DNA of 52,473 bases from a virus (Duplodnaviria; Heunggongvirae; Uroviricota; Caudoviricetes), in the IMG/VR virus record IMGVR_UViG_2541047750_000003, positions 1 to 52,473 of that record. One strand, given 5' to 3'. The position numbers and the translations under genes are program-made. This document shows positions 2,556 through 26,223 of this stretch, one piece after another (the stretch's first letter is position 1; every line of letters starts with the position of its first letter). Below the pieces are notes generated by a model, which saw nothing but the letters and a program-made list of their open reading frames with translations, was not told where the DNA came from and searched no databases.

Positions 2556-3977
2556 TTAAAAAGATGCGTTGCTCTGGCTGTTTCGTGGGGAGAATCGACT
2601 TGCCGCCGGACGTTGTTGCATTGACTGAATGCAAGCGGACGCCGCGCGGGCCTGGTCGCATGGGATGATGTTGCCGTTATCGTCAAACCGCTGGTAAACA
2701 GTCCCCGTTTTCCCGTGACGGTTTTTTGAAACGATGATCTCCATATATTCGCGGGCAACCGATTGTTCGTTGTAGTAGCCGTCGCGGTAGACCATGATGA
2801 TCCGGTCTGCGTCCTGTTCAAGATTACCGGAATCACGCAGATCAGAATTGTTCGGGCGCTTGTTCGGTCGTTCCTCAACGCGGCGAGATAATTGCGCCAG
2901 TGCCGCCACTGGCACGCGCAACTCTTTCGCCATCATTTTCAATGACCGCGACAATTGCCCTACGGCGAGATCATGACGTTCGGCCTTAGCCAGTTTCATT
3001 AACCCGATATAGTCAATCATCACCATCCCCAGGTTATGATGGTCCTGTTTCATCCGTTCGACGGTGGCGCGTATTTCCTCGACCGTTAACTGCGATGCGT
3101 CAACAATCCACACATCGAGATCGGCAAGGGCACTCATTCCCTGGGCGACGTGCGCCCAACCTTCGTCATCCAGTTTTACCGGATTACGTAGGCAATCCGT
3201 TGATAAGTTCCCAGCGCCAGCGATAGCACGTTCAGTCATCTGATCGAGCGACATTTCAAGCGTGAACAGCAAAACGCCGACCCGCTGACCTTCGCCTCCA
3301 GGGTATGGGCGTTCAGCCGCCGCGCGGGCAATTGCCAACGCCAACGCCGATTTACCAGACCCTGGGCGTCCGGCGATAAGCACCAGATCAGTAGCGTTAA
3401 TGCCGCCTAACATTTCGTCGAGTGGGTCAATCCCTGTTTTGATGTTGTCAGAGTTCACGCCACACTCCATGCGTTTACTTAACACTTCCGTGTATTCCTG
3501 GACCGCATCGCGCAACAGCACCGGGATAATTTGATCTTTTGTTACCTTTAATTTTGAATACCGGGAATCAAAATCTTTCATCGTCTCCCTGACGACTTCA
3601 AGCGTCCCTGTTTCCAGCTTGTAGCGAATGTCTTCCATTAGTTCCAGCATTTGCCGACGCTGGTGTTCTTCCTGTAGTAGTTGCGCATATCCTTTCAGGT
3701 TGGCAGCAGAAGGGCACGATCGTGCCGTTTGCATTAGCGGTACAAAGTTTTCATTGCCAATCTCATCGCCAACCAATAACGCGTCGATAAGATTTCTGTT
3801 TCTGGCTTGCGCCCGGATAACTTCAAACGCACGTTTATAAAGCGGGATCGTGAACACTTCAGGATCAAGTGTGGCGAGAACATCTTGCGCGTTAGGAGTA
3901 AGGCCACCTAACAGTAGCCCGCCGATAACTGACGCTTCACGTTCCTGCCGTAGTGAGTTTATTTGCTCAGTTACCAT
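2556..3977 (-). CDS. DnaB-like replicative DNA helicase
   Basis: 473 aa; Walker A GRPGSGKSALALAIA, DnaB-type N-terminal domain, RecA-like core; GGAGG RBS upstream of the ATG. Confidence 0.85.
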   Translation of the reverse strand: MVTEQINSLRQEREASVIGGLLLGGLTPNAQDVLATLDPEVFTIPLYKRAFEVIRAQARNRNLIDALLVGDEIGNENFVPLMQTARSCPSAANLKGYAQLLQEEHQRRQMLELMEDIRYKLETGTLEVVRETMKDFDSRYSKLKVTKDQIIPVLLRDAVQEYTEVLSKRMECGVNSDNIKTGIDPLDEMLGGINATDLVLIAGRPGSGKSALALAIARAAAERPYPGGEGQRVGVLLFTLEMSLDQMTERAIAGAGNLSTDCLRNPVKLDDEGWAHVAQGMSALADLDVWIVDASQLTVEEIRATVERMKQDHHNLGMVMIDYIGLMKLAKAERHDLAVGQLSRSLKMMAKELRVPVAALAQLSRRVEERPNKRPNNSDLRDSGNLEQDADRIIMVYRDGYYNEQSVAREYMEIIVSKNRHGKTGTVYQRFDDNGNIIPCDQARAASACIQSMQQRPAASRFSPRNSQSNASF

Positions 3978-6210: not shown

Positions 6211-6312
6211 TTATGGATTGATTAGCAGGTACAGACCGCCGAACAAGGCGACGTTAACAGCGATTGCCGCAGCGATGGCAAAAGCCAGGGCGAAAACGTG
6301 TTTACCGTCCAT
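6211..6312 (-). CDS. small hydrophobic protein (33 aa)
   Basis: MDGKHVFALAFAIAAAIAVNVALFGGLYLLINP with GAGAGG RBS, in the otherwise ORF-free 375-nt gap. Confidence 0.25.
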   Translation of the reverse strand: MDGKHVFALAFAIAAAIAVNVALFGGLYLLINP

Positions 6313-8835: not shown

Positions 8836-8864
8836 TTGACTCGATGTTTTACGGGGCGTATATT
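8836..8864 (+). promoter_or_regulatory. sigma70-like promoter (pL-equivalent)
   Basis: TTGACT, 17-nt spacer, TATATT; TACAAAATGGA motif abuts the -35. Confidence 0.5.
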
Positions 8865-9118
8865 GCGAGTCAAAGGAAGGGCGCAGGTAACAAAAGCAAC
8901 TTCCTGGCACTTTAAAAATCAGGCTTAACACCTTGTCAACCGTGGAGTAACTCCCCGATGGGGGACCGAAAGCGGCACTGATAACAAGGCGCATGGGGTG
9001 TTTAAAGCGTTACATCCCCCACGAAACCGCACGCAAGGCGACGAGTCAGCTTGCTTGGAGTGAGCAAGGTCACGCCGGGAACGGCGATGATTGCGGGATT
9101 AGTTGAAAGATGTTAAGC

Positions 9119-9156
9119 CGCTCATTAACAATCTGGTCAGCCGCTGGAAGTGCGGC
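9119..9156 (+). promoter_or_regulatory. candidate nutL (boxA-like plus boxB-like hairpin)
   Basis: CGCTCATTA (8/9 to boxA CGCTCTTTA) then 12 nt then hairpin GCCGC-TGGAAGT-GCGGC, 56 nt upstream of the N-like gene. Confidence 0.35.
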
Positions 9157-9212: not shown

Positions 9213-9503
9213 ATGAGCGTTACAATTATATATGGTAAATGTGATAGCAAAATGAATGCCAGGGAACGCAGAAGGATAAAAAGAGAAAACGAAAGAAAAT
9301 CATCACCTGCAATCAATAAAACAGACAATGTGGATAAAGCTATTCGATTTGCAAACGAGGAAAGATGCAAACCAAATAGCATTAAAGAACGTCGCAAAGG
9401 ATCAGTAAAATGGTATACGGAAAATGAAAGCGGCAGCTACTACCACGCAACGCAACCACGCCATTTAGGGGAAAAACCCCTGGATAAAGTCCGCTACCAT
9501 TAA
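9213..9503 (+). CDS. N: N-type transcription antiterminator (arginine-rich motif)
   Basis: 96 aa; MSVTIIYGKCDSKMNARERRRIKRENERK resembles the recalled P22 N (gene 24) N-terminus and ARM; first gene after promoter and leader. Confidence 0.65.
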   Translation: MSVTIIYGKCDSKMNARERRRIKRENERKSSPAINKTDNVDKAIRFANEERCKPNSIKERRKGSVKWYTENESGSYYHATQPRHLGEKPLDKVRYH

Positions 9504-10729: not shown

Positions 10730-11008
10730 ATGAGTGATTATCTAAAACCGCCACCGCAACCACGAACAAAAGAGCAAGTATTAAAAGAAGCCCGCGATCA
10801 AATCGATCGCGGGCTTTTTTTATGCGGCACGGCAGCGGATCGAATGGCGAAAAGATTTAGTGACCTGTACGCGAAGCAAATCTGGTTTGACAACTGGCGA
10901 GCGAGTTCTTACCCGCTACAGAAAACTGATGATATGCAGTGGCCTGAATATGTTGATCCACGAATGCGCAAATATCGCGGGCGTATGGGCAAGGTTATTA
11001 ACGATTAA
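10730..11008 (+). CDS. hypothetical early protein (92 aa)
   Basis: Start refined to in-frame ATG (MSDYLKPP...) after the ssb stop; track ORF 10598..11008. Confidence 0.4.
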   Translation: MSDYLKPPPQPRTKEQVLKEARDQIDRGLFLCGTAADRMAKRFSDLYAKQIWFDNWRASSYPLQKTDDMQWPEYVDPRMRKYRGRMGKVIND

Positions 11009-11020
11009 TGAGGTATTACC

Positions 11021-11272
11021 ATGACAGCTACAACATTAAGCGAAAATAACGGGCGCGGTTTTCAGGGGACTGCGGAAACCTCAGACGATGGTGATGTATT
11101 TGTCGAATTCGGTGGCGGTAACTATGAATTCGAAACGTCGGCGGGCTGGCACGATAAATGGCCTTTCCCGACGCGCAAGGAATTAAGCGAACGTAAATCA
11201 TTTGGCGAAGATGCCGAACGGCTGGCTAATAACAAATGGCTTGATAAGTTCATTGCGGAGGGTGGCAAATGA
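11021..11272 (+). CDS. hypothetical early protein (83 aa)
   Basis: ORF in tightly packed co-directional array. Confidence 0.4.
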   Translation: MTATTLSENNGRGFQGTAETSDDGDVFVEFGGGNYEFETSAGWHDKWPFPTRKELSERKSFGEDAERLANNKWLDKFIAEGGK

Positions 11273-11376
11273 AAAAGATTGCAATGTTATCCGCCGCCGT
11301 TGCTGTGGCGGCTGTTTACCTTAGTGCGTCACTCTATATCACTGTGGCGATTGTTAAGCTGATTACTGACATGTGA
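11269..11376 (+). CDS. small membrane protein (35 aa)
   Basis: MKKIAMLSAAVAVAAVYLSASLYITVAIVKLITDM; ATGA overlap with upstream stop; below the track size cutoff. Confidence 0.4.
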   Translation: MKKIAMLSAAVAVAAVYLSASLYITVAIVKLITDM

Positions 11377-11383
11377 GGTTTAT

Positions 11384-11500
11384 ATGCGAGTCGACAAAAA
11401 TACTGTCAAGGCTGTTTTCTGTGTGGTCGCTTTCGTCTTCATGGTGGTAATAGCTGGCGCGACTGCGGCAATTATTAGCTATATCGGCGGGGTGATGTGA
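11384..11500 (+). CDS. small membrane protein (38 aa)
   Basis: MRVDKNTVKAVFCVVAFVFMVVIAGATAAIISYIGGVM; stop overlaps next start (ATGA). Confidence 0.4.
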   Translation: MRVDKNTVKAVFCVVAFVFMVVIAGATAAIISYIGGVM

Positions 11501-11772
11501 TGCCATTCATGAATATCAAAACGGGTGATCTGGTCGTGCTCCCGGAATACCGTAAAGACCCTGGTCTGGTTGTGCTGAATAAGACATATAACGATCTTGA
11601 GCGTCCGATCCTGGTTAAATATCTGGACGGAACAATTATAGAGCCGCGCTTCTTTGACAAGATCGAACTGAAGGCCCGTAATGTTCGCGTTAAGCCGTTC
11701 CGGGCTTATGTTGAAGACCACTGGCGGAAATTGTTCGCCGGACTGAATGGGATGTTCGGCGTATGGCTATAA
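11497..11772 (+). CDS. hypothetical early protein (91 aa)
   Basis: ORF with ATGA coupling. Confidence 0.4.
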   Translation: MMPFMNIKTGDLVVLPEYRKDPGLVVLNKTYNDLERPILVKYLDGTIIEPRFFDKIELKARNVRVKPFRAYVEDHWRKLFAGLNGMFGVWL

Positions 11773-11954
11773 AATTGGTAAAAGTTAAAGATTTAAAAGG
11801 CGGCGAAAAGATCCGTACGTGGTATGGGTATAAATTTATCATAGCTGCCTTTTCTTTTGGGCCTGGTGGTCAGGTAACATTATTTGACGAGGAAGATGAT
11901 GAGGTGGGTCAATGGCATCTTGAACAATATGTTGAGGTGTTAAATGAAAATTAA
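11763..11954 (+). CDS. hypothetical early protein (63 aa)
   Basis: ORF overlapping neighbours in operon. Confidence 0.35.
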   Translation: MAIKLVKVKDLKGGEKIRTWYGYKFIIAAFSFGPGGQVTLFDEEDDEVGQWHLEQYVEVLNEN

Positions 11955-26160: not shown

Positions 26161-26223
26161 ATGGACGCTTATTTATTTATCGGAATGGCGGCGGCTGTAA
26201 TATTGTTTTTGTTGTGGAAGTAA
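26161..26223 (+). CDS. micro-ORF 1 of array, single-TM peptide (20 aa)
   Basis: MDAYLFIGMAAAVILFLLWK; GAGG SD 10 nt upstream; stop overlaps next start (TAATG). Confidence 0.45.
   Translation: MDAYLFIGMAAAVILFLLWK

Follow-up and report, generated by a model that had tools for sequence, protein, structure and literature searches.

Within the window, that is, the whole 52,473-nt stretch of viral DNA that was analysed, two short plus-strand open reading frames, hereafter ORF A (35 aa) and ORF B (38 aa), occupy the gap of 232 nt that separates a gene for an 83-aa protein from a gene for a 90-aa protein (Table 1). Together they cover 225 of these 232 nt. Both encode hydrophobic products, and they lie at the place and have the length that the initial annotation had given. 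The same annotation had claimed that the two ORFs were missed by the ORF track and that ATGA overlaps coupled them tightly to the flanking genes. They were indeed absent from the default ORF listing, which retains ORFs of at least 60 aa, but this was an effect of the length cut-off: both show up when the minimum is lowered to 20 aa, and both are annotated in relatives. As for the coupling, an ATGA overlap was found at the upstream junction only (11269-11272). The stop of ORF A and the start of ORF B are 7 nt apart, the stop codon and the Shine-Dalgarno sequence being combined in TGAGG, and the stop of ORF B overlaps the ATG of the next gene by one base (TGATG, 11498-11502). Incidentally, a start at the GTG at 11497 would turn this last junction into a GTGA.

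Table 1. Features of the early operon around ORFs A and B (positions are those of the window).
Feature	Position	Strand	Remarks
Best sigma-70-like promoter match, TTGACT-17-TATATT	8836-8864	+	Consensus match, upstream of gp17
Gp17 homologue, N-like antiterminator	9213-9503	+	Operon head; so annotated in MagusPhagus
Strong intrinsic-terminator-like hairpin in the abc2-like gene	10788-10823	+	13-bp stem, 3-nt loop, seven-T run; 5' of both ORFs
Upstream gene, 83 aa, phrog_28542	11021-11272	+	Coupled to ORF A; weak, sub-threshold resemblance to DUF2737
Shine-Dalgarno sequence of ORF A, GGAGG	11257-11261	+	7 nt 5' of the ATG, within the 3' end of the upstream gene; read from sequence
ORF A, predicted single-pass membrane microprotein	11269-11376	+	35 aa, MKKIAMLSAAVAVAAVYLSASLYITVAIVKLITDM; start overlaps the stop of the 83-aa gene (ATGA)
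Hydrophobic core of ORF A, about residues 4-29	11278-11355	+	Hydropathy; contains the conserved Y-L-S-x-S-L-Y-I-T motif
TGAGGT, stop of ORF A overlapping the Shine-Dalgarno sequence of ORF B (GAGG)	11374-11379	+	5 nt before the ATG of ORF B; read from sequence
ORF B, predicted single-pass membrane microprotein	11384-11500	+	38 aa, MRVDKNTVKAVFCVVAFVFMVVIAGATAAIISYIGGVM; one-base overlap of its stop with the start of the downstream gene (TGATG)
Hydrophobic core of ORF B, about residues 10-35	11411-11488	+	Hydropathy; invariant F12, C13, F17, G25, A29
Downstream gene, 90 aa, phrog_28396	11500-11772	+	Coupled to ORF B

When the 232-nt gap was shuffled, two tandem ATG-started ORFs covering at least 180 nt arose in 21 out of 20,000 shuffles, and none of the 20,000 had both tandem ORFs as hydrophobic as A and B. 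Because shuffles so seldom reproduce them, a chance origin of the two ORFs is unlikely. With regard to the neighbours, the upstream 83-aa gene is annotated in relatives as encoding a hypothetical protein, and the 90-aa gene bears the PGAP name 'toxin-antitoxin system toxin subunit'. Searches of Pfam, NCBIfam, PADLOC and PDB sequences gave no match for the 90-aa protein, and we consider the toxin label unsupported by either the profile libraries or the PDB sequences.

Identity of the region with MagusPhagus and with the Mexican E. coli phages mEp010, mEp013, mEp044, mEp554, mEp021, and mEp515 ranged from 80 to 92%, and it reached 99.9% with a prophage of E. coli M15. Matching DNA was present in 35 of the 5,426 complete E. 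coli genomes. This identity places the window among the temperate coliphages of the mEpimmI (mEp021-like) group, which are described as Nus-dependent, non-lambdoid temperate siphoviruses (PMC11893012). In the order of the genes, gp17, which encodes the N-like antiterminator, comes first and is followed by an ORF of 40 aa, by erf and ssb, and by an anti-RecBCD gene resembling abc2; the 83-aa gene, ORF A, ORF B, and the 90-aa gene come next, and then further small genes. In the nomenclature of the group, the operon that contains A and B runs from nutR1, located 5' of gp17, in the direction of nutR2 (PMC11893012). The initial annotation had placed the two ORFs in the early operon, and this placement holds, the operon being headed by the N-like antiterminator Gp17 (PMC11893012).

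Members of the group have been annotated unevenly at this locus. In MagusPhagus, CDS0113 (XNS39439.1) is 100% identical to A and CDS0112 (XNS39438.1) is 100% identical to B. Hypothetical proteins are annotated at the same position in mEp010 (mEp010_29/30), mEp013 (mEp013_28/29), mEp044 (mEp044_27/28), mEp554 (mEp554_27/28), and mEp515 (mEp515_31/32), and these annotated relatives other than MagusPhagus share roughly 50-70% identity with A and B, with equal length and build. Hypothetical-protein entries also exist for E. coli, namely ELC61238.1 for A, CTU79391.1 for B, and WP_000868625.1 for a 40-aa protein of the B type. Records of the PHANOTATE or Pharokka style list both ORFs. RefSeq/PGAP lists neither of them in the M15 prophage and only B in UMNK88, and the GenBank record of mEp021 lacks both ORFs and places a predicted terminator inside ORF A. 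The paper describing the mEpimmI phages, together with its supplements, makes no mention of ORFs A and B (PMC11893012).

In profile searches, ORF A had no match in Pfam, PHROGs, NCBIfam, or PADLOC. ORF B had none in Pfam, NCBIfam, or PADLOC, and picked up a single PHROG of unknown function at chance level (E 0.3); the Pfam searches of both proteins considered E values up to 1. A 40-column profile of ORF B run against 5.8 billion proteins retrieved 71 clusters with E values of 1e-7 to 1e-20, all of them from its own family. Sixty-nine of these clusters were 37-40 aa long, the two outliers of 48 aa looked frameshifted, and the clusters that carried a name came from E. coli or uncultured Caudoviricetes. 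With phmmer, ORF A found one 50%-identity cluster (E 1.5e-5) among 1.8 billion representatives. Exact proteins were found on public contigs, with counts of 423 for A and 422 for B. A tblastn search of both proteins against 50,697 phage records returned the identical MagusPhagus copies only, the low-complexity filter and the short queries limiting its sensitivity. A tblastn search with the upstream 83-aa gene revealed no similar module outside the mEpimmI group, and among the GTDB species-representative genomes none was matched by the 90-aa neighbour or by the ORF B profile. In these searches, then, no relatives of A and B were found outside the group. As far as sequence comparison goes, A and B are two narrow families, deposited but unnamed, that are specific to mEpimmI phages.

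The set of loci used for studying conservation comprised 45 IMG/VR loci retrieved via the 90-aa neighbour, seven phage records, and three prophages (M15, STEC308, and UMNK88). Both ORFs were intact in 52 of the 53 usable loci, ORF A in 52 and ORF B in all 53, and the lone exception was a metagenome contig in which the beginning of ORF A is frameshifted. An independent retrieval via gp17 gave ORF B in 42 of 42 contigs and ORF A in 41 of 42, the contig without ORF A being the very same frameshifted one. This conservation did not reflect invariance of the locus, which showed 38 distinct DNA haplotypes encoding 22 distinct A proteins and 28 distinct B proteins. The pooled Nei-Gojobori dN/dS was 0.20 for ORF A and 0.33 for ORF B, as compared with 0.20 and 0.19 for the flanking genes. 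Out of frame, the values were 0.99 and 1.53 for ORF A and 0.79 and 1.17 for ORF B, and each alternative frame held at least one stop in every haplotype. Variable sites numbered 24, 19, and 35 at the first, second, and third codon positions of ORF A and 21, 22, and 35 at those of ORF B, the third position being the most variable in both.

The Shine-Dalgarno sequence GGAGG of ORF A was present in 38 of 38 haplotypes, and the TGAGG of the A/B junction was retained in most of them. The spacer between the two ORFs measured 2-9 nt, the value of 2 nt being found in one locus (L019) where ORF A ends two codons later. As the length of the spacer varies, A and B do not keep a fixed frame relative to each other. 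The junction between ORF B and the downstream gene varied too, reading TGATG, ATGA, or TAATG, and kept its arrangement of overlapping stop and start. The position of the pair between a gene of 74-83 aa, located 3' of abc2, and the 90-aa gene was likewise kept, with a sole exception: in three STEC prophages (STEC306-308), the pair is split exactly at the A/B junction by a gene with a KilA-N domain. Neither ORF is disrupted by this insertion, which indicates that the two are independent, retained units. The initial annotation had proposed that frames not conserved in related phages would speak against it; the frames are kept, so this objection fails. We regard it as secure, on these comparisons, that ORFs A and B are real, separately translated genes, conserved and under purifying selection in the frames given in Table 1.

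A GC-rich hairpin with a poor T tract lies inside ORF A (11293-11312). Its position and its pairings differ between clades, which is what runs of GCN alanine codons would be expected to produce. We considered that a conserved RNA structure or a terminator might exist here instead of ORF A and rejected this possibility, since the hairpin moves and re-pairs between clades and had no Rfam match. If a functional terminator did work within ORF A, it would lower the expression of ORF B.

The products of both ORFs have a strongly hydrophobic composition. Their GRAVY values, 1.51 for A and 1.56 for B, rank fifth and sixth among the 123 ATG-started ORFs of 30-45 aa found in the six frames of the window, and the values of A and B proteins range from 1.5 to 2.1. 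In windows of 19-23 residues, the mean Kyte-Doolittle hydropathy was 2.2-3.0, and the best of these windows had a summed apparent insertion free energy of +0.3 to -4.2 kcal/mol (Hessa scale), the ORF A of the window being merely marginal on this scale at +0.26 kcal/mol. The N-terminal net charge was +1 to +3, and the tail beyond the helix amounted to 0-6 residues. AlphaFold2 predicted one continuous helix for each protein, spanning residues 2-34 of A (pLDDT 94, no alignment) and residues 5-37 of B (pLDDT 89, 29 sequences). Each predicted helix thus has 33 residues, and about 19 or more are enough to span a bilayer. Hydropathy and structure prediction bear out the membrane-protein build that had been claimed, each product consisting of a single hydrophobic helix. 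Hydropathy and the positive-inside rule further suggest that the two proteins reside in the inner membrane with the N-terminus in the cytoplasm. Overall, we are highly confident that A and B are real membrane microprotein genes.

In alignment numbering, the invariant columns were K5, Y19, S23, Y25, I30, L33, and I34 in ORF A and K5, F12, C13, F17, G25, and A29 in ORF B, the latter including a G-x-x-x-A motif. Invariant residues within the helices included polar or small ones, that is, Y, S, and Y in A and C, G, and A in B. Conservation in ORF A had a weak helical periodicity (p about 0.03, uncorrected for phylogeny among these related sequences), and conservation on one helix face was not found for ORF B (p 0.48). 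As a sign of a packing interface, a conserved helix face is therefore weak for A and absent for B. Small residues were also conserved at positions -3 and -1 of possible cleavage sites (SAS or SVS in A, AGA or CGA in B), and the sequence that follows stays hydrophobic and helical. The idea that A and B are duplicates of each other was rejected, with an hhalign probability of 1.2%. Nor were the two proteins significantly similar to the small ORFs with hydrophobic products near 26223 and 26416, in agreement with the initial view that they are distinct from the post-lysis array.

We then looked at the expression context. Besides the best promoter match (Table 1), the only other plus-strand promoter-like match before 11944 was a single weaker 9/12 site at 9103-9132, also 5' of gp17; the total of promoter-like matches in the region was no higher than in shuffles. 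Between 11000 and 11900, the consensus scan gave no promoter-like site on either strand, which is weak evidence. The terminator scan lists the hairpin of the abc2-like gene on the minus strand; its stem is palindromic, and the plus-strand T-run was read from the sequence at 10817-10823. Plus-strand terminators are annotated at the corresponding place in mEp010, mEp013, mEp044, and mEp554. Reportedly, the paper on Gp17 antitermination mapped terminators experimentally, including one called 't2'. In Rfam, the segment 10500-12500 gave no antisense-RNA family. Incidentally, weak Rfam matches of the leader type at 10788-10823 reflect the hairpin. Antitermination by Gp17 via nutR1 and nutR2 has been documented in mEp021 (PMC11893012, section 3.5). 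Taking into account the strong upstream terminator, the lack of a closer promoter-like site, and read-through by Gp17, A and B are probably made in lytic growth only, as delayed-early products, and silent in the lysogen; consensus scans and the literature are the basis for this timing.

Collectively, these observations led us to an account that we hold, on balance, to be probable, namely, that A and B are membrane microproteins that regulate a larger membrane protein within the bilayer. An early polycistronic mRNA starting 5' of gp17 would carry both ORFs, and their translation would be coupled to that of the preceding 83-aa gene and the following 90-aa gene. By means of Gp17-mediated read-through of the terminator in the abc2-like gene, A and B would be produced after infection or induction and not in the lysogen. 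They would then insert in the inner membrane, with the N-terminus in the cytoplasm and almost no tail on the far side. As scarcely any residues would be left outside the bilayer, their activity would have to be intramembrane. Helix-to-helix binding, either of A with B or with the membrane domain of a larger host or phage protein, might alter the activity of that protein. The regulatory role is suggested by analogy with bacterial small membrane regulators, and general membrane damage appears less likely than helix-helix regulation. We note that nothing in the data separates a regulatory role from mild membrane toxicity.

A more specific version of this account, which we deem quite unlikely as it stands, is that A and B form a two-peptide inner-membrane complex that constitutes a core early function of the mEpimmI group and acts on a specific host membrane machine; a transporter, a division protein, a protease, or a membrane-bound defence protein would be candidate targets. 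If this were true, two bare membrane helices would make up a new family-specific host-control module.

Other explanations were weighed against helix-helix regulation. A possibility was that the products are irrelevant, the ORFs merely serving to keep the stretch of mRNA from the 83-aa to the 90-aa gene occupied by ribosomes, or having arisen by chance in a spacer with a regulatory hairpin. As a matter of fact, the gap is filled exactly by the two ORFs, with coupling to the genes on either side, and the mEp021 record has a terminator and no gene at this place. However, the in-frame dN/dS values of both ORFs are near those of the neighbouring genes and the other frames are near or above 1, specific residues are invariant, the hairpin of ORF A differs in position and pairing among clades, shuffles almost never yield such ORFs, and both ORFs outlast the insertion of a gene between them. 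A spacer that is only translated, or that arose by chance, is largely refuted by these sequence data, and we find it scarcely credible. It also seems highly improbable that A and B are precursors resembling cleavable signal peptides, in which signal peptidase I would cut after SAS/SVS in A and AGA/CGA in B, freeing a periplasmic peptide of 12-16 residues. Both proteins do begin with a basic N-region, which leads into about 15 hydrophobic residues and then into small ones at -3 and -1, and this pattern is kept across clades, S23 being invariant in A, and G25 and A26 being invariant or nearly so in B. Yet the putative mature parts are hydrophobic and continuous with the helix, no helix breaker precedes the putative cleavage site in A, and small residues are common packing motifs of membrane helices.

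A and B might otherwise be toxin-like, membrane-damaging peptides that oligomerise in the inner membrane and dissipate its potential, so as to shut down the host or block superinfection in lytic growth. Their size of 35-40 aa and their single hydrophobic helix with a charged N-terminus give them the general build of a type I toxin, the small-residue motif of B could support self-association, and the adjacent 90-aa gene carries the PGAP 'toxin' label. That label, however, lacks support from Pfam, NCBIfam, PADLOC, and PDB sequences, and neither A nor B had a Pfam match at E up to 1; Pfam does cover a number of type I toxin families, Hok and Ldr among them. Moreover, no promoter-like site, be it for a peptide or for an antisense RNA, was seen on either strand near 11000-11900, no Rfam antisense-RNA family was matched, translational coupling inside a long operon is unlike type I toxin loci, and an early collapse of the potential would hurt the phage's own replication. 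We therefore judge this explanation unlikely. The role in host takeover or exclusion that had been put forward initially was a guess, on which neither homology, nor a profile for defence or anti-defence, nor the literature had any bearing. Put in precise terms, superinfection exclusion during the lytic cycle would mean that A and B block DNA entry of a second phage, in the manner of T4 Imm, or disturb an inner-membrane component of injection. It is consistent with A and B being putative early inner-membrane proteins of a temperate siphovirus, it agrees with the initial suggestion, and the group is known to devote Lpp lipoproteins to exclusion (PMC11893012). On the other side, no homology to known exclusion proteins was detected in PHROGs, Pfam, or PADLOC, and the strong upstream terminator together with the lack of a nearby promoter-like site argues against expression in the lysogen and hence against prophage exclusion, so that any exclusion would be confined to the lytic cycle. 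Known exclusion proteins are also larger and have extramembrane parts. On the whole, exclusion appears distinctly improbable.

Regulation of a larger membrane protein by A and B is a reasonable guess as to function, and the gene call itself is solid, both families being already deposited as hypothetical proteins. With A and B, two phage genes of very small size are well supported, and standard annotation treats such genes unevenly. The mEpimmI group is reported to be common in the human gut, and A and B are present in all members examined; their conservation makes it probable that they are useful to the phage.

Several known systems lend themselves to comparison. AcrZ, MgrB, MgtS, KdpF, and CydX are proteins of fewer than 50 aa, with one membrane helix and very short tails, which bind a larger membrane protein in the bilayer. 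Their likeness to A and B lies in the build, with no sequence relationship in Pfam or NCBIfam. They are chromosomal and have known partners, whereas A and B are an adjacent pair of phage early genes. The type I toxins Hok, Ldr, TisB, Ibs, and the prophage-borne BsrG are hydrophobic single-helix peptides of 20-60 aa as well, some of which are encoded by prophages. A and B are similar to them in size and in having a single helix but differ in being coupled within an operon, as opposed to a stand-alone toxin/antisense locus. At E up to 1, Pfam, NCBIfam, and PADLOC did not place A or B in the Hok, Ldr, TisB, Ibs, or Fst families, and a promoter and an antisense RNA of their own, as type I toxins have, were not found by consensus scan and Rfam, which is weak evidence. 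Among phage proteins, T4 Imm and HK97 gp15 are inner-membrane exclusion proteins of about 80-160 aa, usually with two helices, Imm being made early and gp15 being expressed from the prophage. They are larger than A and B and had no detected homology to them in PHROGs, Pfam, or PADLOC, and expression from the prophage, as for gp15, seems unlikely for A and B. More generally, neither A nor B matched any known family of anti-phage defence or superinfection exclusion in PADLOC or PHROGs. We also rejected a holin or antiholin identity, A and B lying in the early operon beside erf, ssb, and abc2 and not in the lysis cassette.

A catalogue of phage microproteins is said to have been compiled by Fremin et al. 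in 2022. In Enterobacteriaceae, tens of thousands of unannotated small ORFs have been reported to be under purifying selection (Fesenko et al. 2024, PMC11188072). These mainly encode hydrophobic, potentially transmembrane microproteins, which have been proposed to regulate neighbouring proteins (PMC11188072). A and B overturn no current understanding; they fit this description and add two uncharacterised families to the large pool of hydrophobic microproteins.

In the E. coli STEC308 locus (L054, NZ_CP091020.1), a gene for a KilA-N domain protein of roughly 240 aa (1066-1791) sits exactly between ORF A and ORF B, the 35-aa and 38-aa predicted hydrophobic microproteins of the early operon. Both ORFs are intact around it (ORF A at 956-1069, ORF B at 1803-1922), and the same insertion was found in STEC306 and STEC307. 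That A and B stay intact despite the KilA-N gene indicates that their junction is a site open to the insertion of extra genes. We also noticed that, in a divergent clade (L015, L017, L021, L023, and L024, at about 1250-1490), A has the C-terminus ...ALLG, after which come its TGA stop, GTT, and the ATG of B, in that order and all in a single frame. In these five loci, read-through of the stop codon would therefore yield an A-B fusion. Since the relative frame of A and B differs in the other clades, this arrangement is probably incidental.

ORF A was disrupted in one locus only (L014/L081, IMGVR_UViG_3300045988_060283), by a one-base frameshift just past the start. This contig is metagenome-derived, and the lesion may be either a sequencing error or a real mutation. 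Regarding the flanking genes, conservation of the upstream gene (11021-11272) and its homologues in loci L001-L052 was confined to the C-terminal 49 residues, and its tblastn matches in seven related phages spanned residues 35-83 only. By a crude first-ATG measure, the length of this ORF ranged from 74 to 154 aa among relatives, and it showed a weak, sub-threshold resemblance to DUF2737. The downstream gene is named "toxin-antitoxin system toxin subunit" in RefSeq (PGAP), and its counterpart is labelled a putative toxin-antitoxin subunit in the record of the related phage mEp021. Nothing in Pfam, NCBIfam, PADLOC, or PDB sequences bore out this label; the sole match was a PHROG family without known function.

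Other small hydrophobic ORFs were present in the window (see table). The 30-aa ORF is already a hypothetical protein in MagusPhagus (L001, 4408-4500) and corresponds to mEp010_37. The 36-aa and 32-aa ORFs, which had the highest hydropathy among all 30-45-aa ORFs of the window, are probably the "post-lysis array" of the initial annotation. Neither these two nor the minus-strand ORF showed significant similarity to A or B.

Small hydrophobic ORFs, hairpin, and downstream gene in the window
Feature	Position	Strand	Description
Third very small hydrophobic ORF, 30 aa	13231-13323	+	MDDTLFYMCCFWGFIALYLFIRWFIEYHMR; same early operon, farther downstream
Very hydrophobic small ORF, 36 aa	26223-26333	+	hydropathy
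Very hydrophobic small ORF, 32 aa	26416-26514	+	hydropathy
Very hydrophobic small ORF, 33 aa	start at 6312	-	hydropathy
Very strong intrinsic-terminator-like hairpin	10788-10823	+	13-bp perfect stem, 3-nt loop, seven-T run
Downstream gene, 87-90 aa	11500-11772	+	phrog_28396

The strong hairpin falls within the coding region (10730-11008) of the abc2-like anti-RecBCD gene. Rfam returned weak Thr/Leu-leader matches there, which were probably caused by the hairpin itself. The mEp021 reference record (L003, MH706966.1) annotates neither A nor B at 3017-3258, and its predicted terminator TERM_2 falls within ORF A. The equivalent in the window is a GC hairpin with a weak T tract (11293-11312), whose location within ORF A varies from clade to clade. 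As for the hairpin of the abc2-like gene, its counterpart is labelled as a terminator in related mEp records.
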